The notes beneath the pieces were generated by a model. That model did no database searches. It saw only the letters and a list, made by a program, of their open reading frames with translations, and was not told the DNA's origin. A program made the translations under genes and the position numbers. From Eubacteriales bacterium (GTDB lineage Bacteria; Bacillota; Clostridia; Oscillospirales; CAG-272), in the NCBI GenBank assembly GCA_045597265.1, contig JAZODX010000210.1, positions 1-57,606 of the forward strand: a DNA stretch of 57,606 bases, written 5' to 3'. Shown here one piece after another: positions 1-53,535 of the stretch. The stretch's first letter is position 1. Every line of letters starts with the position of its first letter.

Positions 1-75
1 AGCCTGACTGCCGGCATCGTTATCGATATCAGCTACGGTTTCATTGATCCTAGAATCAGAATGGGAGCAAAATGA
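1..75 (+). CDS. 3' end of ABC peptide-transporter permease (OppB/DppB-like), truncated by window edge
   Basis: Frame 1 reads ...SLTAGIVIDISYGFIDPRIRMGAK then TGA. This C-terminal ending is typical of OppB-type permeases. The OppC-like gene starts 1 nt downstream. Confidence 0.6.
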   Translation, partial: SLTAGIVIDISYGFIDPRIRMGAK

Positions 76-76
76 T

Positions 77-1648
77 ATGGATAATAATATAAATAACATC
101 CCCATAGAAAAATTTCAATTTGCGAAAAGAAACGATTTGTATCATGACAGCAAATTTGAAACCAAGCCCGTAAGCTATTTTCAAGGTGCCTTCCGCCGCT
201 TCAGCAAGAATAAGGGCGCGGTTGTCGGCGGCGTTGTAATTGCCGTTCTCGTGCTTTTTGCAATTCTCGCCCCCTTCTTCACTCCCTTCCAGCCGTCGTA
301 CTACGACATGGTGTACGCATACGTTACGCCGAAGAATAATTTCTTTGCCAATCACGATCTCGGATTCTGGGACGGATGCAGAAATAAGAACACCAACCAG
401 ATCGGCTATCTCAAGGACCTTGCGCTTGCTGCCGAAACGGGCAGAGAAGTCATTAAGGGCGACGTAGAGAAGGACGGCTCCAATTATTCTTACCGCTACG
501 ACACCTATTTCGGTGTAGGCTTCGGTAAGTATAAGATCATTTCTCCGGATGAGTTTAAGGACATCCAGAGATATCAGGATGAAACGGGCAGGCAGGTGCT
601 TTATCCTGTCGTCAAGTTCTCCGACAGACCTACGCTTGAGAAGAACAAGTACGACGCCAACATCTACTATAAAGTAGAAAACCCCAGTGTATCCATTCTT
701 CGCCCCAAGCTTGACAAAAACGGTGAGATTATTCCTAATTACTGGAAATACGAGGCAGGCGATGAAAATTCCCTGATCGCAGAGTATACCTCCCGCAGAA
801 TTGAAGGCGAGAACGGTATATCGGATGACGGCAAGCAGTACTTTTACGTTTACGGCCGAAAAGTAGACGGCGGTATTGAGGTCAGAGCTGAGTACTACGA
901 ATATTATATTTATCAGCATAACGTAGTGAAGAAAGACGGCATCAAGGAGCCGCTCTTCCTGTTCGGCACGACGCAGACGGGTAAGGATATCTTTGCCTGC
1001 CTTGCATACGGCGCAAGATTTTCGTTTATTTTCGCAACGATCGTTGCAATCGCAAACTTTATCGTCGGTGTGATCTGGGGCTCCATTTCGGGTTACTTCG
1101 GCGGTAAGATTGACCTGTTCATGGAAAGATTTTCCGAGATACTGGGATCCGTACCTTCCATGATCGTTATTACGCTTCTGAAATATCATATGGGCTCGTC
1201 CAGCCAGGCGCTCGTTTTGTTCATTGCATTCTTTGCAACGGGATGGATCGGCATGGCGGGAAGAACGCGTATGCAGTTCTACCGTTTCAAGAACCAGGAA
1301 TACGTTCTGGCGGCAAGAACGCTGGGCGCGAGAGACGCGAGAATCATGTTCAAGCATATTTTCCCGAACGGTCTCAGTACGAACGTAACCAGCTTTGCTC
1401 TGGTTATTCCTTCGATGATTTACTCGGAGACCAGCCTTTCTTACCTGGGAATCATCAATCTTGAAGCAGGAAACACGACCAGTGTCGGTACGCTTATCGC
1501 AGCGGGACAGCAGTCTATCATGGCAAACGCCGGATACGTGGCACTCTTCCCCTGTATGTTCTTAGTGCTTTTGATGCTCAGCTTCAACTTGTTCGGCAAC
1601 GGATTGCGCGATGCGTTTAATCCATCGCTCAGAGGAACGGAGGATTAA
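77..1648 (+). CDS. oppC: ABC oligopeptide/dipeptide transporter permease (OppC-like) with enlarged extracytoplasmic loop
   Basis: ATG at 77 (MDNNINN...) directly after the upstream stop. TM1 is GAVVGGVVIAVLVLFAILAPFF. Has the FGTTQTGKDIF (GTDxxGRD-like) OppC motif and a C-terminal ABC permease core ending LRDAFNPSLRG. Confidence 0.85.
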   Translation: MDNNINNIPIEKFQFAKRNDLYHDSKFETKPVSYFQGAFRRFSKNKGAVVGGVVIAVLVLFAILAPFFTPFQPSYYDMVYAYVTPKNNFFANHDLGFWDGCRNKNTNQIGYLKDLALAAETGREVIKGDVEKDGSNYSYRYDTYFGVGFGKYKIISPDEFKDIQRYQDETGRQVLYPVVKFSDRPTLEKNKYDANIYYKVENPSVSILRPKLDKNGEIIPNYWKYEAGDENSLIAEYTSRRIEGENGISDDGKQYFYVYGRKVDGGIEVRAEYYEYYIYQHNVVKKDGIKEPLFLFGTTQTGKDIFACLAYGARFSFIFATIVAIANFIVGVIWGSISGYFGGKIDLFMERFSEILGSVPSMIVITLLKYHMGSSSQALVLFIAFFATGWIGMAGRTRMQFYRFKNQEYVLAARTLGARDARIMFKHIFPNGLSTNVTSFALVIPSMIYSETSLSYLGIINLEAGNTTSVGTLIAAGQQSIMANAGYVALFPCMFLVLLMLSFNLFGNGLRDAFNPSLRGTED

Positions 1649-1650
1649 GC

Positions 1651-3873
1651 ATGAATAAAGAAATTAAATTATCGGTAAACGATCTTAAGGTTTCCTTCCG
1701 TACCGATGCCGGTAAGGTTCAGGCGGTACGCAATATTTCCTTCGACCTTTATAAGGGCGAGACGCTTGCCATCGTTGGAGAATCGGGCTCGGGAAAATCG
1801 GTTACCTCTAAGGCGATCATGGGTATTTCCGCGGTCAACGCGATTTACGAGGGCGGTGAAATCCTCTATGACGGCCAGGACCTCATGCGTATCCCCGAGG
1901 AGGAGATGCACAAGCTGCGCGGTGATAAGATTGCGATGATCTTCCAGGATCCGCTGTCCGCGCTCAACCCCATCATGCGCATAGGCCGCCAGATTACCGA
2001 GGCTATGCTGCTGAAAAATAAGGCAAACCGCAAGGAGGGGCGCGTAACCTTCAATAAGACCCTTGCGGAGCTGTCCGAGATGATGAAAAAGGCGCTTGCC
2101 GAGACGCCGAATGTCGGTGTTTCGACGTCGGATGTTGATCAGTATATCAAGACCTTTGACAACTTCAATATTCAGGCAATCAAGCTGGAGAACAGCTACA
2201 ATGCGGCACGTACTGCCGCCGAGGAAATGATCGCGCTCATCGAGGATCTGCTTTTTCTCACCGAGAAGAAGCAGAAGGTTGACGTGGTGTCCACGCTGAA
2301 GCTGATCAGACGCACCCTTCGGGATATTGACGATAAGTACTTTGCTTCCAAATATGCGGAGACGCTCAAGGAGCACACGGCAGCCTTTAAGGGAATTCTT
2401 CGTGCAGAGCGCAAAAAGGTATCCTTTGCCAAGAAGCTGGTACGCTCGGCTGCGTCCAAGCATGAGGCTTCTCCCGAGACCGTCGAGTTCCTTACGGCAC
2501 TCGAGAAGCTGGCAAAGGAGATGCTTGATCAGCCTCGATACAACTTCTTCCGAATCGGTTATTACGTTTATAAGCATCCCGATACCGATCTCAGCCAAAT
2601 GTCGGCTGACGAGGCGAATGAGATCGCCATAAAGTTCCTCAATGGGGATTTTATGGATTCCTTTATCGCGCTCATGAAGATTGCGGTGCAGTATTCCTTT
2701 GACAAGACTATGGAGAATAAGAAGGCTGCGATTGCGGCGCTTGAGAGCGCGATCGGTTTCTTCAGAGCGGGATCCTTTACCGCCCAAGAGGCGGACGCAG
2801 CCTGCAAGAGCGTCAACAAGAGCGTTCTCGCGGCAATTGATCCGCTTGCCGTTGTCAAGGATAACGTGGCCTACACCTTCGGCGGCGCACTCGAAAGAGA
2901 AGTCGAAAAGTACTTCTTCTACGTGAAAAACAACCCGAAGGAGGAGGCTCGCTTTGCGCGCCAGACCGCGCAGAGAGAGGCAATGCTGGCAAAGGGCAAG
3001 AAGGTCGACTGGAAGATCGTCCCCAAGTCGGTGGTTGAGCTTGACGTACAGATTGAGACGATCGTTTCGGTTCTCACCCGCGTCATGAACAAATTCAAGG
3101 CAGACGTTGCGCGTGCAGATGGCTTTGACGCTGATCAACGTTCTGTCGAAATTATCGATTATCTCAAGGAAAAGGCTTCGCAGGTCGTTTATACCCTGAC
3201 CAAGCGAATCGCCAAGGAAAAGGCGATCAAGCTCATGGAAGAGGTTGGTATTCCCGAGGCGAGAATGCGCTACAGACAGTATCCGTTTGAGTTCTCCGGC
3301 GGTATGCGTCAGCGTATCGTAATTGCGATCGCTCTGTCGGCTAACCCCGATATTCTGATTTGTGACGAGCCCACGACGGCACTTGACGTGACGATTCAGG
3401 CGCAGATTCTTGAGCTGATCAACCGACTCAAACGCGAGCACAACCTTTCGATTATCTTTATCACGCACGACCTCGGTGTCGTTGCCAATATGGCGGACAG
3501 AATTGCCGTTATGTATGCGGGTAAGATCGTCGAGTACGGCACGGCGGAGGAGGTTTTCTACGATCCCCAGCATCCCTATACCTGGGCTCTGCTTTCTTCC
3601 ATGCCTGATCTTGATACCAACGAGAAGCTGGATGCAATCCCCGGCACGCCGCCGAACATGATTTATCCCCCTGTCGGAGATGCGTTTGCCGAGAGAAATA
3701 AGTATGCCATGGAGATCGACTTTGAGATGCAGCCGCCCATGTATGAGGTTTCTCCCACGCACTATGCCGCAACGTGGCTGCTCCATCCCAGCGCACCCAA
3801 GGTGGAAATTCCCAAGATTATTACCGAGCGTATCCGTCGAATGAAGGAAAGAGGAGGCAACCATGGAGAATAA
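1651..3873 (+). CDS. oppD: ABC peptide transporter ATP-binding protein (OppD-like) with a ~385-aa insertion in the helical subdomain
   Basis: Walker A GESGSGKS, Q-loop MIFQDP, signature FSGGMRQR, Walker B ILICDEPTTALD, H-loop ITHDLG, and an Opp C-terminal extension (PQHPYTWALL). RBS GGAGGA upstream. Confidence 0.85.
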   Translation: MNKEIKLSVNDLKVSFRTDAGKVQAVRNISFDLYKGETLAIVGESGSGKSVTSKAIMGISAVNAIYEGGEILYDGQDLMRIPEEEMHKLRGDKIAMIFQDPLSALNPIMRIGRQITEAMLLKNKANRKEGRVTFNKTLAELSEMMKKALAETPNVGVSTSDVDQYIKTFDNFNIQAIKLENSYNAARTAAEEMIALIEDLLFLTEKKQKVDVVSTLKLIRRTLRDIDDKYFASKYAETLKEHTAAFKGILRAERKKVSFAKKLVRSAASKHEASPETVEFLTALEKLAKEMLDQPRYNFFRIGYYVYKHPDTDLSQMSADEANEIAIKFLNGDFMDSFIALMKIAVQYSFDKTMENKKAAIAALESAIGFFRAGSFTAQEADAACKSVNKSVLAAIDPLAVVKDNVAYTFGGALEREVEKYFFYVKNNPKEEARFARQTAQREAMLAKGKKVDWKIVPKSVVELDVQIETIVSVLTRVMNKFKADVARADGFDADQRSVEIIDYLKEKASQVVYTLTKRIAKEKAIKLMEEVGIPEARMRYRQYPFEFSGGMRQRIVIAIALSANPDILICDEPTTALDVTIQAQILELINRLKREHNLSIIFITHDLGVVANMADRIAVMYAGKIVEYGTAEEVFYDPQHPYTWALLSSMPDLDTNEKLDAIPGTPPNMIYPPVGDAFAERNKYAMEIDFEMQPPMYEVSPTHYAATWLLHPSAPKVEIPKIITERIRRMKERGGNHGE

Positions 3874-5122
3874 TTCCGAAGTATTATTGAAAGTGGACCA
3901 CCTTTGTCAGTATTTCCGTTTGGGACGCAAGGACCTTAAGGCTGTCGATGACGTCAGCTTTGAGGTGAGAAAGGGTGAATCCTTCGGTCTTGTTGGCGAG
4001 TCGGGCTGCGGAAAGACGACAACCGGCCGTTCTATCATCAAGCTGTATAACATTACCTCGGGTAACGTTTACTTTAAAGGGCAGAGAATCGGCGCCGGAA
4101 CGCGCTCCTATAAGGACGCGATTGCCGCTGCCCGTGCCGATGCCGCCGCGAAGATCAAGCTTCTCCGCGCCGAAAAGACCGCAGATCCTGCAAGAAAGGC
4201 CGAGATCAAGGAAGAAATTGCGAAGATCAATGCAGAGCTTGCTGCCCTCGTCGAGAAGAACCGGGCACTCATCAAGGATGCAAGGTCTGACGGTAAGGAA
4301 GTTGACCGGCAATACGTTGCTTCGCAGCTGGAGTCCCTGAAGGCAGAGTATGACGAAAAGTTCCGTGCGGCCGGAGGCGATGACAAGCAGCTCAAGGCGC
4401 TGCAGCGTGAATTCAAAAACCGTTGCCGTGTCGCAAAAAAGAGCAAGCTCATTACTCGGATCCAGATGATTTTCCAGGACCCGATTGCTTCTCTTGACCC
4501 CCGTATGACCGTACGGGATATTATCGCTGAGGGGCTTGTGATCAACGGCATCACCGATAAGGATTATATCAACGAGAAGGTTTACGAGATTCTTGAGATG
4601 GTGGGACTGGTGCGTGAGCACGCAGATCGTTATCCGCATGAGTTTTCGGGCGGTCAGCGCCAGCGTATCGGTATCGCGAGAGCGGTAATTATGCAGCCCG
4701 AGATGATCATCGCAGACGAGCCTATCTCTGCACTTGACGTATCGATTCAGGCACAGGTAATCAACCTGCTCAATGATCTCAGAGAGCGCCTGGGGCTTAC
4801 GATTATGTTTATCGCACACGATTTGTCGGTTGTAAAATACTTCTCCGACCGAATCGGCGTTATGTACTTTGGAAAGTTGGTTGAGCTTGCCGATTCGGAC
4901 GAGCTCTTCAAGAATCCCCTGCATCCGTATACGAGGTCGCTTCTTTCGGCAATCCCGTTGCCTGACCCCATCTATGAGAAGCAGCGCACGAGAATTCATT
5001 ACAATCCTCTGGCGGAGCACGACTATTCGGTAAATTCCCCCTCCTTCCGTGAGATTACCCCCGGACATTTCGTATATTGCAATGACGCTGAAGAGGAAAA
5101 ATACAAGCAGCAGGTCAAGTAA
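3863..5122 (+). CDS. oppF: ABC peptide transporter ATP-binding protein (OppF-like) with a ~110-aa charged helical insertion
   Basis: Walker [11 protein letters not shown]-loop MIFQDP, signature FSGGQRQR, Walker [13 protein letters not shown]-loop [13 protein letters not shown] tail. Start overlaps the oppD stop. Confidence 0.85.
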
Positions 5123-5144: not shown

Positions 5145-5564
5145 GTGAAACAGGAAACAAAAGCAACGATAATCAAATATGCGATTTGTTTTGGCGTTGA
5201 AGCACTGATTGCATTTCTTGTCATCTGGTCGAAGGGATTTTTCGCGCACAGCACGGCGGTCAATATTCAGATCCTGTCAGATGCGTTCTTCGTCGCGGGC
5301 GTATTGATGTCGCTTTTTGCCGGCATGCTGTACGTCAGTGGTGAGGGCGCGCTGATCGGTATCGGATTCGTTCTTCGAAACGTCGTGCTCTCCTTTCTCC
5401 CGATGGGCAGAGCAAAGCACGAGCGATATGCCGATTACCGCGAGCGTAAGCTCAGCGAGAACAAAAAGCAGAGTGATCACTGTATTCTCGTAACGGGACT
5501 GGTCTTCCTTGCCATCGGAATCGTCTTTACGGTTATCTGGTACGTAAAATATTATCAGGTATAA
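5145..5564 (+). CDS. small multi-pass membrane protein (DUF3899-like)
   Basis: GTG start. Four hydrophobic segments separated by a charged KHERYADYRERKLSENKK loop. Followed by a terminator. Confidence 0.5.
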   Translation: MKQETKATIIKYAICFGVEALIAFLVIWSKGFFAHSTAVNIQILSDAFFVAGVLMSLFAGMLYVSGEGALIGIGFVLRNVVLSFLPMGRAKHERYADYRERKLSENKKQSDHCILVTGLVFLAIGIVFTVIWYVKYYQV

Positions 5565-23176: not shown

Positions 23177-23953
23177 TTATTCGATTTGTTCCATTTTGGA
23201 AAAGGCCTGAGGGGAATAGCCGGTGTATTTGCGGAATTCTTTGGCAAAATAACTGGGACTGTCAAAGCCGACGCGGCCGGCGACCTCGGTGACGGAATAA
23301 TAGCCGGAATTGAGCAGGGTTTTTGCTCGATTAAGACGGTAATTTTTGACGTAAGTGCTGGTGGGAATACCGTATTCCTTGATAAAAAGTCTCCGTAGAT
23401 AGGCTGAAGTGAAGCCGGCCAGCGAAGCCAGGTATTCTACATCGGCGGCTTGTGCGGAGTCGTAATGATTATGCACGTATTCAATGACCGGCAAAAGACG
23501 GCGATCGAATTCGGATACCATGGTATGAAAATCAGACTCGTTGAGCAGTTTACTGAGAATCTGATAGAATCTGGACATGCAGACAAAGCGGTCGGCGGGG
23601 GTGGGGGATTCAAACAGCTCAAGCAGGCGAGTAAAATCGGACGCGATTGCACGGCCTTGGGAGGGGAAAATGATTTGCGGTTCTTCCGAGAGTGGGGAGG
23701 ATAAATGGAAATGGCAGGCAATGATTTCACGAGAGTCCTTGATGATGCTGGTATAACTGACTCCCTGCGGCATTAACAGGACGCTGCCGGGTGGAGAGGA
23801 AAGGGTAAGCTTATCCGTGCTGATCTCTCCGTTTCCCGACAAACAAAGTGAGAGTGAATGGAAATTCCGCTCACGAACTGCAAGACGTCCGCGCGGGGGG
23901 AAGCATTGCATTACATCAAGCTGAGTGACATAGAGCAGATCACTGGTAAACAT
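23177..23953 (-). CDS. AraC family transcriptional regulator (cupin sensor domain plus HTH)
   Basis: C-terminal YSVTEVAGRVGFDSPSYFAKEFRKYTGYSPQAF. GGGAGGA RBS lies 8 nt from the second ATG. Confidence 0.85.
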   Translation of the reverse strand: MFTSDLLYVTQLDVMQCFPPRGRLAVRERNFHSLSLCLSGNGEISTDKLTLSSPPGSVLLMPQGVSYTSIIKDSREIIACHFHLSSPLSEEPQIIFPSQGRAIASDFTRLLELFESPTPADRFVCMSRFYQILSKLLNESDFHTMVSEFDRRLLPVIEYVHNHYDSAQAADVEYLASLAGFTSAYLRRLFIKEYGIPTSTYVKNYRLNRAKTLLNSGYYSVTEVAGRVGFDSPSYFAKEFRKYTGYSPQAFSKMEQIE

Positions 23954-23981
23954 ACACATATCCTCCCTTAATCCTTGTTCC

Positions 23982-24015
23982 GATTTGTTGCATTTTGTAT
24001 TGATATCTTGTAGAC
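23982..24015 (+). promoter_or_regulatory. 34-bp conserved element, copy B (putative AraC-type activator/auto-regulatory site)
   Basis: GATTTGTTGCATTTTGTATTGATATCTTGTAGAC. It lies in the divergent araC / solute-binding-protein intergenic region and ends 18 nt upstream of TATAAT (24034-24039). Confidence 0.5.
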
Positions 24016-24223
24016 GGCTCTGATATGATGTTTTATAATAAAGATGTACCGTAGGATGAAGCTCCGTTTATATGTTAGCACACAATACAACTGCATGTCA
24101 AGTATCGGTGTGAAATATTTCGGACAACCGGCGCACCGCTTGGATCGCGTATTGCGTACGGCACAGCTGCTTCGCCTGCATAAAAAATCCTGCATAAAAA
24201 ATCAAGAAAGGAAAATCCCCATC

Positions 24224-25735
24224 ATGAAGAAGAAAATTCTCGCCGTATCTCTCTCCGTTTTGCTGTTGATGTCGATGGCAGTCGGGTGTGCGAATACACC
24301 GGGACAGACTGCAGACACCACGACCGATCCGACCAATGCAGATAATCCTCCTGCAAGCGGTGACGTGACTACGGTTGAATCGAACGACGCAGATCTTCTG
24401 GGCTTCCCCAAGGAAGATAACGGCAACAAGAAATTTGTCATCTACACCAATTCCACCAAAAGTGACGGCAGTGCACTCGGTGACTTCAATGTTGAATCAC
24501 AGACCGGAGATCTTGTTAACGATGCCGTCTTCAAAAAGGATGCTAAGGTTGAGGACTACCTCGGTATCGATATTGAGCTGATCTTAGAGAATGGTGTATG
24601 GTCGAAGCGCAGTGCTTTCAATAACAAGATCATTGCTGCATATGACGCCGGTGATCATGAGTTTGATGTGGTTAACAGCATGTTGGTCTGCACCATTCCG
24701 TTAGCCGGTCGGGGCCTGTTCGTCGACGTAAGTGATCTTCCGCACACCGGTTTTGATAAGCCCTGGTATATCAAGGACATGGTTGAGAATTATGGAATAG
24801 GCGGCAAATTCTATGGGATCATCAGCGACCACTCGCTTTCCCTCTACAAGGACCTGTCGGTTATTTTCTTCAATGCGGATATGATGGAGGACGTAAAGCC
24901 GGATGTAGACCTTTACGATCTTGTCCGCCGGGGAGAATGGACGCTGGACAAATTCCTTGAGGTTTCCTCGGATATGGCACGTGACCTCAATGGCGATGAT
25001 GCGTATACTGCAGGCGACGATATTTTCGCTTATTTCGGTGAGGGTGTACCGAACGGCACCTGGATCACTGCGTTGGATATTCATTCCTTTGAAATTAACG
25101 AAACGGGAAACTCCTTCACCTACTACGGCCTGACCGAACGCTTTTCCTCGGCATATGACCGTATGGGCGTTTTCTCGACCAGTCCCGGTGTCCGTAACGA
25201 GCAGGGTACCTTGGGGGCTCGGGATACCTTTGCAAATGGCCGTGTCGCCTTTATGACCAATTTCCTCTATACTACGGAAAGCCTTCGTGACATGGACGAC
25301 GACTACGGCATTCTCCCGATTCCGAAATACGATACGAATCAGGAAGACTACATTTCGCAGGTCGGCACCTCGACCTCGACCTTCTTTGTTCCGCAAACCC
25401 AGATGAATCTGGATCTGGTGTCCAAGTTCATCGAATGTGAGGCTTATTTCGGTTATACCGAGGTGTCGGACGTCTACTATGAGGTTGCTCTGAAAACCAA
25501 ATATATTGATGATCCGAACATGGTTGACATGCTGGATATTGTTCGTGAAAATGCAACCATAACCTTTATGATGGTTTATGGTGCGAACTACATGAAAAAC
25601 TCCCCCTATGAACGCTTCCGCTTCTCGGCATCGGGTGTTGCTTACACCGATATCGCGTCTTGGATGGCCTCTCGCGAGACGTCCTTCTGCACTTCGCTCC
25701 AGACCCTGCTCGATGCGTATGCCGCATTGGAATAA
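24224..25735 (+). CDS. ABC transporter extracellular solute-binding lipoprotein (large, sugar-type family 1)
   Basis: Lipoprotein signal MKKKILAVSLSVLLLMSMAVGC. T/D/P-rich tether. About 500 aa, as in large carbohydrate-binding SBPs. Confidence 0.7.
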   Translation: MKKKILAVSLSVLLLMSMAVGCANTPGQTADTTTDPTNADNPPASGDVTTVESNDADLLGFPKEDNGNKKFVIYTNSTKSDGSALGDFNVESQTGDLVNDAVFKKDAKVEDYLGIDIELILENGVWSKRSAFNNKIIAAYDAGDHEFDVVNSMLVCTIPLAGRGLFVDVSDLPHTGFDKPWYIKDMVENYGIGGKFYGIISDHSLSLYKDLSVIFFNADMMEDVKPDVDLYDLVRRGEWTLDKFLEVSSDMARDLNGDDAYTAGDDIFAYFGEGVPNGTWITALDIHSFEINETGNSFTYYGLTERFSSAYDRMGVFSTSPGVRNEQGTLGARDTFANGRVAFMTNFLYTTESLRDMDDDYGILPIPKYDTNQEDYISQVGTSTSTFFVPQTQMNLDLVSKFIECEAYFGYTEVSDVYYEVALKTKYIDDPNMVDMLDIVRENATITFMMVYGANYMKNSPYERFRFSASGVAYTDIASWMASRETSFCTSLQTLLDAYAALE

Positions 25736-25788
25736 GCTGATTCTTGCTTGATGCAGAACAGAAAATAATACATAAGGAGAAAAAGAAC

Positions 25789-26850
25789 ATGAAAAAAACT
25801 CTTGCGATGCTTTTGTGTGTAATGATGCTTTCCGCTCTGATTTTGTCGGCGTCCGCTGCTTCACCGGATCCCATTTGGATCGACTATTTCAGCGATGCAT
25901 CCGCACGTGATTATTCCAGTACATATTATGACACGTCGGTACAGAACGGTGTGCTCACCATTACGCCGAAAGAGCCCAAGACGCGTGCGCTTTATCAGTT
26001 CCCCGGGTTGGGCAGTGTTTCCGAGGATTCCTACACCTTTATTATCCGATTCCGCAATACGTTCCCTAAATATAACAGTAATACGTTATTTGGCGTTAGC
26101 TTTGGCGGTGCAAATGAAGAAAACTTTTTCTTCGCCACATTCGTTGAAGCTTATGGATTCCCCAGACCTTACTGGGGCATGGTAGAAAATGCAAAAACTA
26201 CGCGCACAACGAACCGTCAAAACATAGAGGGCAGCTTCAGAATTGCAACGAAAGCTGCTGACGGCAGCAGCATCGTCGGCGAAAGAACGATCACAATGGT
26301 GATTGAGATCAACGGTACCAATGAGCCGGTATTCAGCTACTACGATGAACAAGGTAACCTCTGTAATTATCAGGACAATGGGAGTTTGTATGGAAAAAAG
26401 GATCCTGACTACGGCGCTTGTGAAGGCTTTACGACCAAGGGTCTGATGGGTTTGATCCTCGGTAATGAATGCACACTTGAGATCGACGCAGCCGGTGTTT
26501 GGAATGGTGTAGGTCTTGATAATGCTGCACTGGTCAAGACGATGAGTACTGAGCCCGTGCCCGAAACCACAAAGGCGTCCGAAACCACGAAGGCACCCGA
26601 AACCACAAAGGCGTCCGAAACCACGAAGGCACCCGAAACCACGAAGGCACCCGAAACCACGAAGGCACCCGAAACCACGAAGGCGCCCGAAACCACGAAG
26701 GCGCCCGAAACCACGAAGGCGCCCGAAACCACGAAGGCACCCGAAACTACTCCCGCAACCGGAAGCAATATGGTTGTGATGTTTATCTGTGCAGCGACGG
26801 CCGCCGTGCTGATGAGTACATTGTGCATGCGTCGAAAACGCCAGCGCTGA
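25789..26850 (+). CDS. secreted cell-surface protein: beta-sandwich-like domain, (PETTKA)n linker, C-terminal sorting-signal-like anchor
   Basis: Signal peptide MKKTLAMLLCVMMLSALILSASA. Ten ETTKA[PS] repeats. C-terminus is TPATG plus a hydrophobic helix plus RRKRQR. AAGGAGA RBS. Confidence 0.6.
   Translation: MKKTLAMLLCVMMLSALILSASAASPDPIWIDYFSDASARDYSSTYYDTSVQNGVLTITPKEPKTRALYQFPGLGSVSEDSYTFIIRFRNTFPKYNSNTLFGVSFGGANEENFFFATFVEAYGFPRPYWGMVENAKTTRTTNRQNIEGSFRIATKAADGSSIVGERTITMVIEINGTNEPVFSYYDEQGNLCNYQDNGSLYGKKDPDYGACEGFTTKGLMGLILGNECTLEIDAAGVWNGVGLDNAALVKTMSTEPVPETTKASETTKAPETTKASETTKAPETTKAPETTKAPETTKAPETTKAPETTKAPETTKAPETTPATGSNMVVMFICAATAAVLMSTLCMRRKRQR
26560..26751 (+). repeat. 18-bp tandem coding repeat (about 10.5 copies) encoding PETTKA
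   Basis: CCCGAAACCACGAAGGCN is reiterated head-to-tail, with only wobble changes and A/G changes at Pro/Ser. Confidence 0.9.
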
Positions 26851-26942
26851 TCCATTACAATTAGAACGCAGGGGAAGAGAAAAATTTTGTTTATCTTCCT
26901 CTGCTTTCCAATTTGAATCTTTCCAAGCAAAGGAGACCCAAT

Positions 26943-27983
26943 ATGCCAATCAAACATACTGCCGTAAGCTATTACGGCCTCAATTACGTTGAGCATGCCC
27001 GCGCGGATTTCGAAGAAATGAAGGCGCACGGCTGTGATACCGTTATTCTTGCCATCACCGAGTTCGATATGGACTTTTGGTTCCCAAACATCAACAGCAT
27101 CGTCCGCTGTGCGCATGAGCTCGGCCTTCGCGTGCTTGCCGATCTGTGGGGAATCGGTAAATATTTTGGCGGCGAGCAGGTGAGCCTGTTCTTGCAGAAC
27201 AATATCCATCACCGTCAGGTTTCGGCCTTCACCGGTGAGGTGCTTAACGCTGCTTGCTTCAACACCAATTCCTTCCGCGATTATTTTACCCGCCTTTGCC
27301 TTAAGCTTGCGCGGGAGACCGAGGTTGACGGCTTCTTCTGGGATGAGCCGCACTATGCGATGCCCAAGTCCTATGCGTCGATCACCGGAGGCGCCGGTGA
27401 TGACTGGTCCTGCCGCTGTCCCGAGTGTATGAAAAAGTTCGAGGAATACTACGGCTATGAAATGCCGAAGATCATGAACGACGACGTCAAGCAGTTCCGC
27501 TGGCGCGAGGCACTCAAAACGCTTGCGGATGCATCCCGCGAGATCAAGGCAGTCAATCCCGCGCTTGAGATTACCTGCTGTGTACACGCTACGCTGAACA
27601 CCTATTACGTGACCGAGCTGCGCGGCTATGACAATTGGGATATGGTTGCTGCCTGCCCTTATTTCGACGTTTTCTCAACCACCATCATCAACTGGGAGTT
27701 GCCTGAGTCCTTCTTCGCGGATATTACCCGCCGCACGGTGGAGATGGCAAAGAAGTATGGCAAGCAGTCCGAGCGCTGGCTGATGGGTTACAACAAGCGC
27801 CCCGCCGATTTTGCGCAGATCGACCGCATCGTAGATCTCTACGAATCGATGGGGGTTGACCGACTGGCCACCTGGACCTACCGCGGCGGCTACGGCACCG
27901 TCGTTGCCGCGCCCGACGCACTGCAGCTTTGGGATTGTATCGGCGAAAATTACAACCGTGTTTTGGTGAAAGAGGAGAAATAA
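26943..27983 (+). CDS. hypothetical cytoplasmic protein, TIM-barrel glycosidase-like
   Basis: No signal peptide. Alternating beta/alpha pattern, FFWDEPHY acidic motif and CRCPEC cysteine cluster. AAGGAGA RBS. Confidence 0.4.
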   Translation: MPIKHTAVSYYGLNYVEHARADFEEMKAHGCDTVILAITEFDMDFWFPNINSIVRCAHELGLRVLADLWGIGKYFGGEQVSLFLQNNIHHRQVSAFTGEVLNAACFNTNSFRDYFTRLCLKLARETEVDGFFWDEPHYAMPKSYASITGGAGDDWSCRCPECMKKFEEYYGYEMPKIMNDDVKQFRWREALKTLADASREIKAVNPALEITCCVHATLNTYYVTELRGYDNWDMVAACPYFDVFSTTIINWELPESFFADITRRTVEMAKKYGKQSERWLMGYNKRPADFAQIDRIVDLYESMGVDRLATWTYRGGYGTVVAAPDALQLWDCIGENYNRVLVKEEK

Positions 27984-45661: not shown

Positions 45662-48358
45662 ATGGAAAGCAAAACCTACGAAATTGTTGACAGTGTGGAA
45701 GCACTTCACGCTGCGATCGCTCGTGTAAGAGCGGCGCAGAAGATTTTTTCGACCTACACGCAAGAACAGGTTGACAAGATTTTCCTCAGCGCGGCCTCTG
45801 CTGCAGACAAGGCAAGAATCTCTCTTGCAAAGCTTGCGGTTGAGGAAACCGGAATGGGCATCGTAGAGGACAAAGTAATCAAGAACCACTACGCTGCTGA
45901 GTACATTTACAACGCTTACAAGGACACCAAGACCTGCGGTGTGATTGAAGAGGACAAGGCTTTCGGCATCAGAAAGATTGCAGAGCCTATCGGTGTTGTT
46001 GCTGCCGTTATCCCTACGACCAATCCCACCTCCACCGCAATCTTTAAGTGTCTGCTTGCCCTCAAGACGCGTAACGCCATGATAATCAGTCCTCACCCCA
46101 GAGCAAAGAATTCCACCATTGCGGCTGCAAAGCTCATTCTTGAAGCAGCGGTAGCAGCAGGTGCGCCCGAAGGTATCATCGATTGGATCGACGTGCCTTC
46201 TCTCGATATGACGGGGACTCTGATGCGGGAAGCGGATATCATTCTTGCGACGGGTGGTCCGGGAATGGTCAAGGCTGCATATTCCTCCGGCAAGCCCGCT
46301 CTCGGTGTCGGTGCAGGCAACACGCCTGCGATTATCGATGAAACCGCCGATATCCTCCTTGCCGTTAACTCGATTATTCACTCCAAGACCTTTGATAACG
46401 GAATGATCTGCGCTTCCGAGCAGTCTGTTATCGTTCTGGAAAGCATCTACGATATCGTTAAGGCGGAGTTTGCGGCACGCGGATGCTATTTTCTGAGTCC
46501 GATGGAAACAGAAAAGGTTCGTAAGACGATTATCATCAACGGTGCACTCAACGCAAAGATCGTCGGTCAGAAGGCAGTTAAGATTGCCGAGCTTGCAGGC
46601 GTAAGCGTTCCTGCCGGCACCAAGATTCTTATTGGCGAGGTTGAGAGCGTTGAACTTTCCGAGGAATTTGCACACGAGAAGCTTTCTCCCGTACTTGCCA
46701 TGTATAAGGCCGGAACCTTTGCAGAAGCGTTGGATAAGGCAGATACGCTTGTTGAGGACGGCGGCTTCGGTCACACTGCCTCTCTCTACATCAACGAGAT
46801 CACGGAAAAGGAAAAGCTTGCTGCTTATGAGGCAAGGATGAGAACTTGCCGCATTCTCGTTAACACGCCCTCCGCGCACGGCGGTATCGGTGATCTTTAC
46901 AACTTTAAGCTTGCTCCCTCGCTCACGCTCGGATGCGGCTCCTGGGGTGGAAATAGCGTATCTGAAAACGTAGGGGTAAAGCATCTTTTAAACATCAAAA
47001 CGGTCGCTGAGAGGAGAGAAAATATGCTTTGGTTCAGAACACCCGAGAAGGTTTATATAAAAAAGGGCTGCCTCCCCGTAGCGCTCGATGAGCTGAGAAG
47101 CGTCAGAGGCGCAAAGAAAGCGTTCATCGTAACCGATACCTTCTTGTATCAGAATGGATATACCAAGCCGATCGCCGACAAGCTTGACGAAATGGGCGTT
47201 CAGCACACCACGTTCTGGAACGTACAGCCCGATCCCACCCTTGCGAACGCGACTGAGGGAGCAGCGCAAATGCGCGCGTTCCAGCCCGATACCATTATTG
47301 CACTCGGCGGGGGTTCGGCAATGGACGCGGCAAAGATCATGTGGGTACTCTACGAGCATCCTGAAGCAGACTTTATGGATATGGCAATGCGCTTTATCGA
47401 TATTCGCAAGAGAATCTACACCTTCCCAAGGATGGGAGAGAAGGCATACTTCATCGCAATCCCCACCTCTGCAGGTACGGGGTCTGAGGTAACTCCTTTC
47501 GCGGTTATCACCGATGAAAAGACGGGTGTTAAATATCCTCTCGCCGACTATGCGCTTCTTCCCAACATGGCAATTATCGACACCGACTTCCATATGTCCG
47601 CGCCCCGCGGTCTGACGGCGGCTTCGGGTATTGACGCGGTTACGCACGCAATTGAAGCGTACGCCGCCATGCTTGCAACCGACTATACCGACGGCCTTGC
47701 CCTGCGCGCGCTCAAGATGATCTTCGAGTATCTCCCGCGTGCCTACGATAACGGCCAGACCGACGTTGAAGCGCGTGAGAAGATGGCAAACGCTGCGACG
47801 ATGGCGGGCATGGCATTCGCTAACGCATTCCTCGGCGTATGTCACTCTATGGCACATAAGCTGGGTGCATTCCACCATCTTCCCCACGGCGTTGCAAACG
47901 CCCTTATGATCGAGGAGGTTCTCCGCTTCAACGCTGCTGAGGCTCCTGCAAAGATGGGCACCTTCTCGCAGTACGACCATCCGCATACGCTTGCCCGTTA
48001 TGCTGAGATCGCTGATTATCTCGGTATTAAGGGGGCAAACGATGAGGAGAAGCTTGAGGGGCTTATCAAGGCAATCAACGACCTTAAGACTCGCGTTGGA
48101 ATCAAGGAGACTATCCGGGACTACGGCATCGATGAGGCCGACTTCCTTGCACGCCTTGACGATATGGTAGAGCAGGCGTTCGACGACCAGTGCACGGGTG
48201 CGAATCCTCGTTATCCTCTTATGCGCGAGATCAAGCAGATGTACCTCAACGCTTACTACGGCAATCACTTCGTTGAAGAGAGAATGCCTGCTGCCGACCT
48301 CGGTGATGCAAAGGCCGATCCCATCAAGGCACCCTATCGCAAGGGAAAAAAGGTGTAA
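45662..48358 (+). CDS. adhE: bifunctional acetaldehyde-CoA / alcohol dehydrogenase
   Basis: 898 aa. N-terminal ALDH domain (catalytic Cys in FDNGMICASEQ), C-terminal iron-ADH domain (GGGSAMDAAK, HSMAHKLG). Confidence 0.95.
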   Translation: MESKTYEIVDSVEALHAAIARVRAAQKIFSTYTQEQVDKIFLSAASAADKARISLAKLAVEETGMGIVEDKVIKNHYAAEYIYNAYKDTKTCGVIEEDKAFGIRKIAEPIGVVAAVIPTTNPTSTAIFKCLLALKTRNAMIISPHPRAKNSTIAAAKLILEAAVAAGAPEGIIDWIDVPSLDMTGTLMREADIILATGGPGMVKAAYSSGKPALGVGAGNTPAIIDETADILLAVNSIIHSKTFDNGMICASEQSVIVLESIYDIVKAEFAARGCYFLSPMETEKVRKTIIINGALNAKIVGQKAVKIAELAGVSVPAGTKILIGEVESVELSEEFAHEKLSPVLAMYKAGTFAEALDKADTLVEDGGFGHTASLYINEITEKEKLAAYEARMRTCRILVNTPSAHGGIGDLYNFKLAPSLTLGCGSWGGNSVSENVGVKHLLNIKTVAERRENMLWFRTPEKVYIKKGCLPVALDELRSVRGAKKAFIVTDTFLYQNGYTKPIADKLDEMGVQHTTFWNVQPDPTLANATEGAAQMRAFQPDTIIALGGGSAMDAAKIMWVLYEHPEADFMDMAMRFIDIRKRIYTFPRMGEKAYFIAIPTSAGTGSEVTPFAVITDEKTGVKYPLADYALLPNMAIIDTDFHMSAPRGLTAASGIDAVTHAIEAYAAMLATDYTDGLALRALKMIFEYLPRAYDNGQTDVEAREKMANAATMAGMAFANAFLGVCHSMAHKLGAFHHLPHGVANALMIEEVLRFNAAEAPAKMGTFSQYDHPHTLARYAEIADYLGIKGANDEEKLEGLIKAINDLKTRVGIKETIRDYGIDEADFLARLDDMVEQAFDDQCTGANPRYPLMREIKQMYLNAYYGNHFVEERMPAADLGDAKADPIKAPYRKGKKV

Positions 48359-49451: not shown

Positions 49452-49715
49452 ATGTTGTTCGTTCAGGTTTGTGTTGGTTCGTCCTGCCACCTCAAGGGCT
49501 CTCAGGAGATCGTAGCCCTTTTTGAAAAAGCCGTGGAGGAACATCATATCGAGGATGAGGTCGTGCTTTCCGGCAGCTTTTGTATCGGAAAGTGCAACCG
49601 GGTCGGGGTTACCGTACAGGTAAACGATGATGTGCACGTGGGTGTGACGAGAGAGAATTTCAGAGAATTTTTCAAGAAGAATATACTTGATACGATTGAA
49701 ACCGAAAGGAAGTGA
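49452..49715 (+). CDS. thioredoxin-like [2Fe-2S] ferredoxin (NuoE/HydC-like), copy 2
   Basis: CVGSSCH ... CIGKC. Colinear paralogue of the preceding gene. Confidence 0.7.
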   Translation: MLFVQVCVGSSCHLKGSQEIVALFEKAVEEHHIEDEVVLSGSFCIGKCNRVGVTVQVNDDVHVGVTRENFREFFKKNILDTIETERK

Positions 49716-49720
49716 CGATT

Positions 49721-51400
49721 ATGGCAAATTGCTTAACGCTGAAAAAATCCAACTGCAAAAACTGCTATAAATGTATCCGTCACTGTCCCGTAAAGGCGAT
49801 TCGCTTTTCGGGAAACCAAGCACATATCATCGGCAATGAGTGTATCTTGTGCGGTCATTGTTTCGTCGTCTGCCCGCAGAACGCAAAGGAAATCGTAGAC
49901 GGGACCGAGAAGGCGAGAGTCTTGCTGCAGAGCGGAGATCCCGTCGTTGTCAGTCTTGCGCCCTCGTTTATTGCGAACTATGAAGGCGTAGGAATAGAGT
50001 CTATGCGCCGAGCACTCTGCAGGCTTGGCTTTTTCGACGTTGAAGAGACGGCAATCGGTGCAACCATCGTTAAGACCGAATACGAGCGGATGCTGCGTGA
50101 GGAAGAAAGGGATATTATCATCAGCTCGTGCTGTCACTCCGTCAATTTACTCATACAAAAGCATTTTCCTTCGATGCTTGAATATCTTGCCGACGTGATG
50201 TCGCCTATGCAGGCGCACTGTGCGGACATCAAGAAAAGAATGCCGAACGCAAAGACGGTATTTATCGGGCCGTGCGTTGCCAAAAAGGATGAAGCTGAAC
50301 ACTACGAGGGAATCGTGGATGCCGTTCTTACGTTCGAAGAGCTTACGAATTGGTTGAAATCCGAGCACATTGAGCTTGAACAGAAAACGGACAAAACGCC
50401 CGAAAGTCGTGCACGCTTCTTCCCGACAACGGGAGGCGTACTGAAAACGATGGCGCAGAACGCACCCGGATATACGTACGTCGCACTTGATGGGGTTGAG
50501 AACTGTATCGCCGCACTTAAGGATATCGAGAGTGGGAAGATCCATAAATGCTTCATTGAAATGTCTGCCTGCGTTGGCAGCTGTATTGGCGGTCCCGTCA
50601 TGGAAAAATATCATAGTACATCGCCGATTAAGGATTACGTAACCGTGGCCGGTTATGCCGGTGAGCACGACTTTGCTGTCGAACAGCCTGCTCCGATGAA
50701 TCTGAAAAAGCATTTTTCCATGATTGAGAAAAGGCTGCAGACACCTTCGGAAAATGAGATTATGACCGTTCTTCGTCAGATGGGTAAGTTCAAGCCTGCC
50801 GACGAGCTTAACTGCGGATCCTGCGGATACAATTCCTGCCGTGAGAAAGCGATCGCGATTATTCAGAGCAAGGCTGAAATATCCATGTGTCTGCCCTTTC
50901 TCAAGGACAAGGCGGAAAGCTTCTCGGATACCATTGTCAAGAATACGCCCAACGGACTTATCGTGCTTAACGAGAATCTTGAGGTTCAGCAGATCAATAC
51001 TGCGGCAAGGAAAATTATGAATATCCGTGCAGCATCCGACGTGCTCGGCGAGAGTGTCGTCCGCATTCTCGATCCTGCCGTGTTTGTTCAGGTCAAAAAC
51101 AGCGGAAGAACGGTAAGAGATCTGCGTACTTATCTTGCCGAATATAAAAAATACGTGGAGCAAACCGTGGTTTACGATCCCGATTCCCGTATGCTGATCG
51201 GCATTATGCGTGATATTACCGACGAGGAAGCCGATAGAGAGAAGAAGGCAAGAATCAATAAGCAGACGGTTGAGGTTGCCGACAGCGTTGTCGAAAAGCA
51301 GATGAGAATCGTTCAGGAGATCGCATCCTTGCTCGGTGAAACCGCAGCAGAAACCAAGATTGCTCTGACGAAATTGAAGGAGTCGATCGGCGATGAATGA
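49721..51400 (+). CDS. hydS: HydS-type putative sensory [FeFe]-hydrogenase (2x[4Fe-4S] domain, H-cluster domain, Cys4 motif, PAS domain)
   Basis: CKNCYKCIRHCP and CILCGHCFVVCP. H-cluster motifs SSCCHS, GPCVAKK and EMSACVGSCIGGP. CGSCGYNSC...C motif. C-terminal PAS-like NGLIVLNENLEVQQINTAARKIMN. Confidence 0.8.
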   Translation: MANCLTLKKSNCKNCYKCIRHCPVKAIRFSGNQAHIIGNECILCGHCFVVCPQNAKEIVDGTEKARVLLQSGDPVVVSLAPSFIANYEGVGIESMRRALCRLGFFDVEETAIGATIVKTEYERMLREEERDIIISSCCHSVNLLIQKHFPSMLEYLADVMSPMQAHCADIKKRMPNAKTVFIGPCVAKKDEAEHYEGIVDAVLTFEELTNWLKSEHIELEQKTDKTPESRARFFPTTGGVLKTMAQNAPGYTYVALDGVENCIAALKDIESGKIHKCFIEMSACVGSCIGGPVMEKYHSTSPIKDYVTVAGYAGEHDFAVEQPAPMNLKKHFSMIEKRLQTPSENEIMTVLRQMGKFKPADELNCGSCGYNSCREKAIAIIQSKAEISMCLPFLKDKAESFSDTIVKNTPNGLIVLNENLEVQQINTAARKIMNIRAASDVLGESVVRILDPAVFVQVKNSGRTVRDLRTYLAEYKKYVEQTVVYDPDSRMLIGIMRDITDEEADREKKARINKQTVEVADSVVEKQMRIVQEIASLLGETAAETKIALTKLKESIGDE

Positions 51401-52565
51401 TTTGTGTGCAGACATCGGATATAAAAGCATCAATCACGTCGGCGAAGAGCTTTGCGGCGACCACGTGGACGTCGTAGAGGAAAATGAGAATTCTACCGTA
51501 ATCGTGCTTGCAGACGGCCTTGGGTCGGGTGTTAAGGCAAGTATTTTGTCTACATTGACCGCCAAGATCATCTCAACGATGATGGCGGCAGGGCTTCCCA
51601 TTGAGGAATGCGTGTCTACGATTGCCGCAACCCTGCCCGTATGCTCCGTGCGAGGTGTGGCATATTCTACGTTTACGATTATTCATTTGTTGAATAACCA
51701 GATCGCCGAGATCATTCAGTACGATAATCCTCACGTGATCGTGATAAGAGATTACGTTGTTTACGAGTATCCCAAAACAGAAATGAGCATCGGCGGCAAA
51801 AAAATATTCAAATCCACGATTAAGCTGCAAGAGGATGACGTATTCATCGCCATGAGCGACGGATGTCCTCATGCCGGTATGGGCGGGAAATACAACTTTG
51901 GTTGGAAACGAGAGGATATCGCCGAGTATATGCTGGCACTCGTTGCAGGCGGGTATACGGCAAAGAATCTGTCTACCATGCTGGTTGATGAATGTGATAA
52001 GCTGTACGATCATAAGCCCGGAGACGATACGACCGCCTGCGTCGTAAAGGTACGCAGGAGAGAGCCTATGAACATTCTGTTCGGTCCTCCTTCAAACCGT
52101 GACGACGCAAACCGAATGATGTCGCTGTTCTTCTCCAAGGAGGGCAAGCACATCATCTGCGGCGGTACGACCTCCTCGATTGCGGCAAAATATCTGGGCA
52201 AAAAGGTTGAGGTAAGCCTGAGCTTTGAGCGGAGCGATATTCCTCCCATCGCCCATATCGAAGGTGTGGATCTCGTGACTGAGGGCGTGATTACCATGAA
52301 TAAGGTTATTCAGTACGCCAAGGATTATCTTGGCGCTAACGCGTGTTATGAGGAGTGGAGCTTCAAGAAGGACGGAGCGTCCCTGATCAGCCGACTTCTC
52401 TTTGAGGAAGCAACCGACATCAACTTTTACGTTGGCAGAGCGGTGAATCCCGCTCACCAAAACCCGGATCTTCCGATCAATTTTAATATTAAAATGAATC
52501 TTGTGGAAGAGCTTTCCCTCTGCTTAAAGAAAATGGGAAAGCGAATTAAAGTAAGTTATTTTTGA
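51393..52565 (+). CDS. SpoIIE/PP2C family serine phosphatase
   Basis: GEELCGDHVDVVE...VIVLADGLGSGVKASILS and GDDTT motifs. Overlaps the hydS stop by 8 nt. Confidence 0.8.
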   Translation: MNDLCADIGYKSINHVGEELCGDHVDVVEENENSTVIVLADGLGSGVKASILSTLTAKIISTMMAAGLPIEECVSTIAATLPVCSVRGVAYSTFTIIHLLNNQIAEIIQYDNPHVIVIRDYVVYEYPKTEMSIGGKKIFKSTIKLQEDDVFIAMSDGCPHAGMGGKYNFGWKREDIAEYMLALVAGGYTAKNLSTMLVDECDKLYDHKPGDDTTACVVKVRRREPMNILFGPPSNRDDANRMMSLFFSKEGKHIICGGTTSSIAAKYLGKKVEVSLSFERSDIPPIAHIEGVDLVTEGVITMNKVIQYAKDYLGANACYEEWSFKKDGASLISRLLFEEATDINFYVGRAVNPAHQNPDLPINFNIKMNLVEELSLCLKKMGKRIKVSYF

Positions 52566-52578
52566 GGATTTAAAGGAT

Positions 52579-53526
52579 ATGAAAAAAAAGGTAACGATTA
52601 TTGGGGCCGGAGCGGTTGGCGCCACGACGGCATTTGCATTGCTGGCAAGAAACGCGGCTTCGGAGGTTGTGTTGATCGATATCAATACCGAAAAGGCGCT
52701 TGGCGAAGCGTTGGATATCAAGCAGGCGACCCCCTTTATTGACAACTGCGATATCTATGCGGGAAGCTACCGCGACGCCGTTGATTCGGACGTTGTTGTC
52801 ATTACGTCGGGCGTGGGAAGAAAACCCGGACAAACTCGATTGGAGCTGGTACAGACCAACGTAGGTATTGTGCGGAGTATATCCGAGGAGATCGTAAAAT
52901 ACGCACCGAACGCAATTTATATTCTCGTGGCAAATCCCGTCGATATCCTGACCTACGCATTCTTGAAATACACGGGACTCCCCAAAAATCAGGTCATGGG
53001 CACGGGTACCGTTCTCGATACCATCCGTCTGCGCACGCGGCTTGCGGAGATCTATAACGTCAATAAGCAGCAGGTTCATGCAAACATCCTTGGGGAGCAC
53101 GGAGATACGTCCTTTGTGGCCTGGTCCACAGCGACCATCGCGGGAATACCCGTAGATGAATATAATGCGTCCATTGCAACGCCCTACCATATTCCCACCG
53201 AATATCAGCGGGAGGATGTCGAAACCTACGTCAGGAAATCGGGGGGGAAGATCATCTCCCGCAAAGGCTGCACCGTTTACGGGATCGGAATGTCCACGAC
53301 GCATATTGTGAAGACGTTGGATGGAAACGCAGAAACGGCAATGACGGTTTCTTCCCTGCATGAAGGGGAATACGGTATTTCCGACGTATGCCTGAGCTCG
53401 CTGTCCCTGGTTGATTCTACGGGAGTCAGATCGATCATCACCCAAAAGCTGAGCGATGACGAAATACAAAAGCTTTATGCATCGGCAGAAGCGCTGAAGG
53501 CAGTGATTCGAACGGCGGGATTATAA
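52579..53526 (+). CDS. ldh: L-lactate dehydrogenase
   Basis: IIGAGAVG, GVGRKPGQTRLEL, GTGTVLDTIRLR and LGEHGD (catalytic His). Confidence 0.9.
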   Translation: MKKKVTIIGAGAVGATTAFALLARNAASEVVLIDINTEKALGEALDIKQATPFIDNCDIYAGSYRDAVDSDVVVITSGVGRKPGQTRLELVQTNVGIVRSISEEIVKYAPNAIYILVANPVDILTYAFLKYTGLPKNQVMGTGTVLDTIRLRTRLAEIYNVNKQQVHANILGEHGDTSFVAWSTATIAGIPVDEYNASIATPYHIPTEYQREDVETYVRKSGGKIISRKGCTVYGIGMSTTHIVKTLDGNAETAMTVSSLHEGEYGISDVCLSSLSLVDSTGVRSIITQKLSDDEIQKLYASAEALKAVIRTAGL

Positions 53527-53535
53527 GGAGAAGCC

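Follow-up and report, generated by a model that had tools for sequence, protein, structure and literature searches.

The OppD subunit and its inserted domain

The gene investigated here, oppD, lies at 1651..3873 on the forward strand (+) of a 57,606-nucleotide stretch of DNA from a Eubacteriales bacterium (contig JAZODX010000210.1). This whole stretch is referred to as the window in the following. The gene is a single open reading frame (ORF) of 740 amino acids (aa) for an ATP-binding cassette (ABC) ATPase, which carries in its interior an all-alpha domain of 395 residues (2014..3198, +, aa 122-516). This insert is explained by no known domain. The protein represents a well-known engine in a lineage-specific form rather than a system of a new kind.

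Judged by its sequence, oppD codes for a genuine OppD protein that is catalytically competent and belongs to an oligopeptide ABC importer. The motifs of the ATPase occur in canonical order: Walker A GESGSGKS (aa 43-50, 1777-1800), Q-loop MIFQDP (aa 96-101 with Q99, 1936-1953), signature FSGGMRQR (aa 548-555, 3292-3315), Walker B ILICDEP (aa 568-574, 3352-3372), D-loop TALD (aa 576-579) and H-loop ITHDL (aa 604-608 with H606, 3460-3474). Pfam assigned ABC_tran with 101.4 bits (cut-off 25), split into two stretches, and the C-terminal oligo_HPY domain with 51.1 bits (cut-off 27.1). Comparison with solved OppD/DppD structures gave an expectation value (E) of 7e-116. The cut-offs of the NCBIfam OppD models were not reached, with 362 bits for PRK09473 (cut-off 575) and 468 bits for MMSYN1_0167 (cut-off 740), as would be expected when an insert of 390 aa splits the ATPase domain and the sequence is divergent. 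For the C-terminal half, the Mollicutes OppD model gave 380 bits and the E. coli-type model 237 bits.

The N-terminal ABC part (1651..2013, +, aa 1-121) is 96% conserved among 72 sequences. It ends with the helix that follows the Q-loop, IGRQITEAMLL (1981-2013, +), which carries E117. The C-terminal part (3199..3873, +, aa 517-740) begins with the helix before the signature motif (3214-3249, +), and the oligo_HPY domain follows the motifs. The insert is located between these two helices. Its boundaries were taken from the alignment with the OppD chain of Mycobacterium tuberculosis OppABCD (8j5q_D). Residues 7-121 correspond to 5-118 of this chain and residues 517-708 to 124-317, and 395 residues are found in OppD where 8j5q_D has 5. 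With the E. coli-type profile PRK09473, aa 7-130 align to profile positions 2-124 and aa 513-709 to positions 116-312; the size of the insert is then ~382-390 residues. The range of aa 131-515 given by an earlier sequence-only reading of this DNA agrees with these PRK09473 flanks, as does its statement that the insert roughly doubles the protein to 740 aa. Its position for MIFQDP (aa 97-102) was off by one.

The insert is rich in A, E, K and L. Structure prediction with AlphaFold2 (AF2) gave eleven helices of 10-54 residues each, and the sequence-only description as helical was borne out by the model. The predicted local distance difference test score (pLDDT) was ~90-97 across most of aa 130-400 in the full-length model. 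For the insert alone, a mean pLDDT of 88.9 and a predicted template modelling score of 0.75 were obtained. In the model, the helix after the Q-loop runs with E117 into the insert as one continuous helix (H111-151). The insert returns via helix 494-513, and after a short break the helix before the signature (518-531) follows. The predicted continuity of the E117 helix also agrees with the earlier placement of the insert in the helical subdomain that contacts the coupling helices of the permeases. In ABC importers this subdomain transmits ATP binding to the membrane domains. A comparison of the two halves of the insert with hhalign gave a probability of 1%, and an internal duplication was rejected.

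The isoelectric point (pI) is 8.9 for the insert, 9.4 for its N-terminal half and 10.2 for aa 420-460, compared with 5.6-5.8 for the ATPase core. Three conserved segments were identified. In YNFFRIGYYVYKHP (2539..2580, +, aa 297-310) the pattern FF.IG.Y...P is invariant in 15 diverse inserts. The loop AIDPLAVVKDNVAYTFG (2833..2883, +, aa 395-411) was modelled by AF2 with lower pLDDT; K403 and F410 are kept in at least nine out of ten sequences of an alignment that includes the most distant members. The best-conserved stretch of the insert is KYFFYVKNNPKEEARFARQTAQREAMLAKGKKVDWKIVPKS (2908..3030, +, aa 420-460). It is strongly basic and contains many invariant polar residues; for these reasons it is a candidate interaction surface.

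A second peculiarity concerns the C-terminal region. The four cysteine ligands of the [4Fe-4S] cluster, as known from M. tuberculosis OppD and from E. coli DppD/DppF, are all replaced, namely by D677, N683, F691 and T708 (3676-3777 in the window, by alignment with the M. tuberculosis protein). OppD contains only two cysteines, at positions 385 and 571, and OppF has no equivalent cysteine set. For E. coli DppBCDF it was reported that the complex depends on its C-terminal [4Fe-4S] clusters for stability (PMC12136057). Since the cysteines are gone, the OppD/OppF complex must be held together in another way. A four-cysteine site occurs in the solved members from E. coli and M. tuberculosis, but it does not strictly define the family.

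The operon is oppA-B-C-D-F followed by a DUF3899 gene, and it encodes an oligopeptide ABC importer. Its host is an uncultured Oscillospiraceae bacterium of the gut that resembles Faecousia. In the window, oppD is flanked by oppC and oppF, and OppA and OppB are encoded upstream in the relatives L001, L002, L083 and L084. The permease gene oppC (44..1648, +) ends 2 nucleotides (nt) before the start of oppD. Its product of 534 aa is long for OppC, with Pfam matches to OppC_N (aa 44-89) and BPD_transp_1 (aa 342-530). About 200 extra residues between the OppC_N transmembrane helix and the BPD_transp_1 core are covered by no model, and the top NCBIfam match, Opp3C, covers aa 292-530 only. The start of oppF (3863..5122, +, 419 aa) overlaps the stop of oppD by 11 nt. 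OppF has the full set of ABC motifs. As both ATPases possess full motif sets, both ATP sites look competent. Directly after oppF, a small membrane protein of 139 aa with a Pfam match to DUF3899 (E 2.9e-9) is encoded (5145..5564, +). A homologue of this protein follows oppF in 71 of 82 loci and also in L083, a distant relative, and the protein possibly belongs to the transporter as an additional subunit.

OppF carries an insert of its own. It comprises ~125 aa (4082-4456, OppF aa 74-198) and is located between the strand after Walker A and the Q-loop. This insert is basic (pI 9.8) and rich in A, E and K, and in relatives it occurs in two main length classes of 103 and 125 aa. The mean column conservation in OppF is 72% for the insert and 95% for the core. 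A common origin of the OppD and OppF inserts was rejected (hhalign probability 0.2%). The operon with the insert-bearing OppF and the DUF3899 gene is kept even in distant relatives. The Opp system is enlarged throughout, with OppC of 525-538 aa, and OppB alone has the usual size. In the relatives, OppA has 811-903 aa (L001 1387-4038, L002 1242-3776, L083 102-2537, L084 688-3399); a typical OppA has roughly 550 aa.

Distribution, selection and integrity of the reading frame

All 182 proteins found with the excised insert as query came from uncultured Clostridia, Oscillospiraceae or Ruminococcaceae. In a scan of one genome per GTDB species, 404 stretches encoding a relative of the insert were detected. 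The best 80 of these 404 were all from metagenome-assembled genomes (MAGs) of the gut, labelled Oscillospiraceae, Faecousia (a genus of Oscillospiraceae), Eubacteriales or Clostridia. Hosts of this kind are abundant uncultured gut anaerobes, which presumably depend on the uptake of peptides.

An uninterrupted full-length ORF (720-744 aa) was present in 71 of 82 fetched loci, and most of the others are cut by the end of a contig. Across 72 sequences, the core was on average 96% identical to the window protein and the insert 75%. The ratio of non-synonymous to synonymous changes (dN/dS) had a median of 0.11 in the insert and of 0.02 in the core. Thus, purifying selection on the insert is clear, though the ATPase is the more constrained part. 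In distant members with only 46-53% identity overall, the insertion point is unchanged and the insert measures 350-400 aa. The anchors FF..[AG]Y, IDPL...KD..A.TF, N.KEE.R and GK...P are common to them. One of the distant members, P0208 (897 aa), has an extra C-terminal tail of ~150 aa with low complexity. In P0202 (707 aa) the N-terminus does not align with the ABC domain and looks by eye like a lipoprotein or binding protein; this entry may be a chimeric gene call.

Several observations at first sight point to an artefact or a mobile element, that is, to an assembly chimera, read-through of a frameshift, an intein or a foreign gene. Many public "proteins" of ~406 aa begin in the middle of the insert, one relative (L083) was called as two genes, and some contigs from sequencing runs "skip" the insert. 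None of these held up. A split gene with an internal start ("MDSF...") was rejected, as the DNA of L001 and L002 contains an intact ORF of 743 aa. The change of frame in L083 comes from a stretch of N that fills a scaffold gap, and a real split was rejected as well. In the "skip" joints, which might suggest splicing, each side covers just 20-36 nt within conserved ABC motifs, and the joints were attributed to cross-mapping from other ABC genes. An intein was rejected; the insert is all-alpha, it lacks intein junction residues (the junctions are LL|KNKAN and VVYTL|TKRI) and no Hint or intein model of Pfam matched. An origin from a phage, a defence system or a plasmid was rejected too, as searches for each gave no match. 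Together with the uninterrupted ORF in the 71 loci, these results make an artefact or mobile element next to impossible. The sequence-only reading was right to treat the insert as real, as indicated by the intact ORF here and in these other loci and by the dN/dS.

The short public entries are due to annotation. In at least 15 MAGs, the NCBI annotation gives a C-terminal fragment of 399-407 aa with an internal Met start; the proteins P0057-P0096 belong to these entries. In the mis-annotated entries ~1 kb is left uncalled, including the half with Walker A; the full ORF is found at 6990-9221 in L001 and likewise at 6990-9221 in L002. The insert defeats automatic annotation, which helps to explain the absence of the domain from family databases.

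An antisense ORF of 731 aa over oppD (1669-3864, -) was rejected as a gene. It is a codon-aligned shadow ORF, which arises because oppD has only one TTA, CTA or TCA codon, at codon 7. Antisense ORFs are also found over oppC (56-1357, -, 433 aa) and oppF (3884-5068, -, 394 aa); such codons are few there, with three in oppC and one in oppF.

Comparison with known families and systems

Neither the whole insert nor pieces of it matched a Pfam or NCBIfam model up to E = 10. PADLOC and plasmid records gave no match to the insert, and with PHROGs two matches at chance level were obtained (E 0.035 and 0.067). A profile of 15 inserts found nothing below E = 0.45 among the sequences of the PDB. With the full-length model, Foldseek returned ABC cores only; hence the insert was folded and searched alone. 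Only generic long-helix matches resulted, in the PDB with a best E of 0.1 and a template modelling (TM) score of at most 0.21, and in BFVD with a best E of 0.09. The same 15-sequence profile was searched with HMMER against 1.84 billion representative proteins and detected only 240 clusters (E <= 0.001). In matches with a preserved N-terminus the insert begins at ~120-124 of an OppD-like protein, and complete matches have ~690-760 aa. The insert domain is thus known only at that position inside OppD. One matching cluster carries a generic label of the Joint Genome Institute (JGI) as oligopeptide ABC ATPase and nothing more.

In the literature, no relevant report on inserts in OppD/OppF or in the helical subdomains of importers was found. 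To our knowledge, no large folded domain is known to be inserted in the helical subdomain of a transporter ATPase. The insert is a lineage-specific, vertically inherited all-alpha domain without detectable relatives. These results cover the points on which the sequence-only reading could have failed. It had recognised no motif in the insert, and no Pfam or NCBIfam model matched; a known domain family common in OppD proteins was not found, and an assembly or frameshift error is contradicted by the intact ORF in relatives. The taxonomic survey that it had proposed led to the gut Clostridia and Oscillospiraceae MAGs described above (best 80 of 404), and the fold search that it had proposed for the excised insert gave no fold match in PDB or BFVD.

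With canonical OppD/DppD proteins, as solved in E. coli OppBCDF (8z21), E. coli DppBCDF (8z1v) and M. tuberculosis OppABCD (8j5q), the window protein shares the ABC core, the catalytic motifs, the oligo_HPY domain, the pairing with OppF and OppB/OppC, and a helix behind the Q-loop whose conserved Glu (E117 here) contacts the coupling helix. It differs in ~390 extra residues where the solved proteins have ~5, in the replacement of the four [4Fe-4S] cysteines and in scores below the NCBIfam OppD cut-offs.

The closest NCBIfam profiles for both ATPases of the window are those of Mollicutes, NF043079 (MMSYN1_0167) for OppD and NF043078 (MMSYN1_0168) for OppF. These proteins are likewise enlarged ATPases with internal inserts, and the insert of the window OppF is at the Mollicutes site. 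The OppD insert could be the one already known from the MMSYN1_0167 family, and the top NCBIfam match of the whole protein is indeed the 561-position Mollicutes OppD model with 468 bits. This score is below the cut-off of 740. In addition, aa 7-76 align to profile positions 2-71, aa 101-132 to positions 315-346, and aa 515 onwards to positions from 338. The Mollicutes insert accordingly precedes the Q-loop, between the strand after Walker A and the Q-loop, whereas the insert of the window OppD follows the helix after the Q-loop. The window insert alone gave no match to the Mollicutes OppD model. Homology with the Mollicutes OppD insert was rejected because of the other site and the missing sequence match, and we consider it very improbable that the two inserts are the same.

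Insertions at the point found here are known from ABC ATPases of another kind. In SMC/Rad50 a coiled coil, and in UvrA the insertion domains, lie between the Q-loop and the signature motif. SMC/Rad50, UvrA and the ABCF arm share with the window OppD the insertion point and a helical structure that leaves and returns via helices of one lobe, and their inserts bind partners or transmit the ATPase cycle. In contrast to OppD, they are not subunits of membrane transporters. Each arm of SMC/Rad50 is one very long antiparallel coiled coil that bears a hinge or hook, whereas eleven helices of at most 54 residues and no two-stranded arm are predicted here, and Pfam SMC_N scored only 24.7 bits on OppD, below its cut-off of 40. 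The ABCF arm is inserted after the Q-loop region of nucleotide-binding domain (NBD) 1, and in MtbEttA, for example, it is a hairpin of ~40 residues (residues 94-136; PMC8782954).

Among importers, accessory parts of the ATPase that gate NBD closure on a signal are known from OpuA and from MalK, MetN and ModC. The element of OpuA resembles the OppD insert in being an insertion in an importer NBD, basic and near the membrane, but it consists of two short helices. It was described as a cationic helix-turn-helix that acts as regulatory sensor (PMC7673798). The regulatory domains of MalK, MetN and ModC are C-terminal and beta-rich. For none of these elements, that of OpuA included, was a similarity in sequence or fold to the insert found.

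Possible roles of the domain and other genes of the window

The sequence-only reading suggested a regulatory or scaffolding module, and this is plausible; it fits the purifying selection and the point of attachment. In a more specific form, the domain would be a built-in accessory or regulatory arm of the transporter. We favour this tentatively, with a confidence somewhat short of even. The residue of E. coli DppD that corresponds to E117 is E114, for which a salt bridge with the coupling-helix region of DppB was described (PMC12136057). The helical subdomain of E. coli DppBCDF rotates by ~20 degrees between the inward- and outward-facing states (PMC12136057). As the insert continues the E117 helix and returns before the signature helix, it is mechanically tied to this rotating subdomain. 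It would thus be a rigidly attached arm that moves with the subdomain. With its invariant polar loops of aa 395-460, the arm would probably touch a further part of the complex or the surface of the membrane; the AF2 confidence of these loops is below that of the surrounding helices, as is often seen in interface segments. Candidate contact sites are the OppF insert, which is basic and helical, the cytoplasmic side of the permeases or of the membrane, and the DUF3899 protein. The inserts of OppD and OppF are both basic and the ATPase cores acidic. Contact of the loops could stabilise the complex or gate the closure of the ATPase dimer. The insert might in this way take the role that C-terminal regulatory domains have elsewhere, or that of the lost [4Fe-4S] domain. 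Should the domain turn out to gate or stabilise the transporter, a new mode of importer regulation would be added.

Some points weigh against such an arm. At non-synonymous sites the insert changes about seven times faster than the core (dN 0.198 compared with ~0.027), and given this faster change, part of it may be only a spacer. The length variants of the OppD and OppF inserts show no obvious co-variation. In the full-length AF2 model the N-terminal core has a low pLDDT of 34-57. That the insert is no artefact is supported also by assembled metatranscriptome contigs, which are identical to parts of it without mismatch (2818-3068 and 1995-2152), but such contigs can include DNA carry-over and this RNA evidence is supportive only.

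Instead of acting in cis, the insert could serve to dock a cytoplasmic partner that acts in trans, for example a regulator, a kinase or a peptidase that takes over the imported peptides. The invariant polar loops of aa 395-460, partly with low pLDDT, resemble a surface that becomes ordered on binding. Soluble ABC ATPases bind partners via insertions at the equivalent topological position, and the ABCF arm contacts the ribosomal L1 stalk (PMC8782954). However, the only conserved gene nearby that could encode a partner is that of DUF3899, a membrane protein, and no similarity to a known adaptor fold was found, so that we regard docking as unlikely, although it deserves serious consideration. The basic character of the insert, of aa 420-460 and of the OppF insert, compared with the acidic core, would also suit a sensor of the membrane surface or of ionic strength, in which binding to anionic lipid head groups beside the transporter locks or releases it, as was proposed for the OpuA element. 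The attachment helix at the membrane-facing coupling groove and the precedent of OpuA (PMC7673798) are in line with this. Yet the insert has ~390 residues compared with two short helices in OpuA, and no amphipathic or hydrophobic membrane-binding segment was identified in it; a sensor of this type is doubted strongly.

It is quite unlikely, too, that the insert is a tolerated and largely functionless spacer within a general inflation of the Opp proteins. The enlargement of OppA, OppC, OppD and OppF, with OppB excepted, would agree with this, as would the faster change of the insert relative to the core and its variable loops with insertions and deletions. A dN/dS of 0.11 is difficult to reconcile with a spacer, and invariant polar motifs survive among inserts that are only ~38% identical. 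Moreover, the length of the insert is similar in relatives with only 46-53% identity overall.

A wider interpretation goes beyond the arm. The insert, possibly together with the OppF insert and the DUF3899 protein, could represent a hitherto undescribed cytoplasmic module of a type I ABC importer, which we think rather unlikely. Such a module would couple the ATPase cycle to a second process or gate peptide uptake on a cytoplasmic signal. If this were true, a new regulatory or mechanotransmission principle for ABC importers would be at hand.

Two further regions of the window were noticed in passing. The region 23177-27983 has a lower GC content (0.48) and contains an AraC-type regulator, a lipoprotein of 563 aa without Pfam match, a surface protein of 368 aa with (ETTKAP)n repeats and a C-terminal anchor, and a protein of 356 aa without Pfam match. 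It looks like a carbohydrate-utilisation cluster. In the region 49712-54963, a PAS-domain protein resembling [FeFe] hydrogenases of the sensory type adjoins a SpoIIE-family phosphatase; a lactate/malate dehydrogenase and a second [FeFe] hydrogenase are also encoded there. An AdhE gene is located at 45662-48358. The hydrogenase and AdhE genes belong to ordinary anaerobe metabolism.

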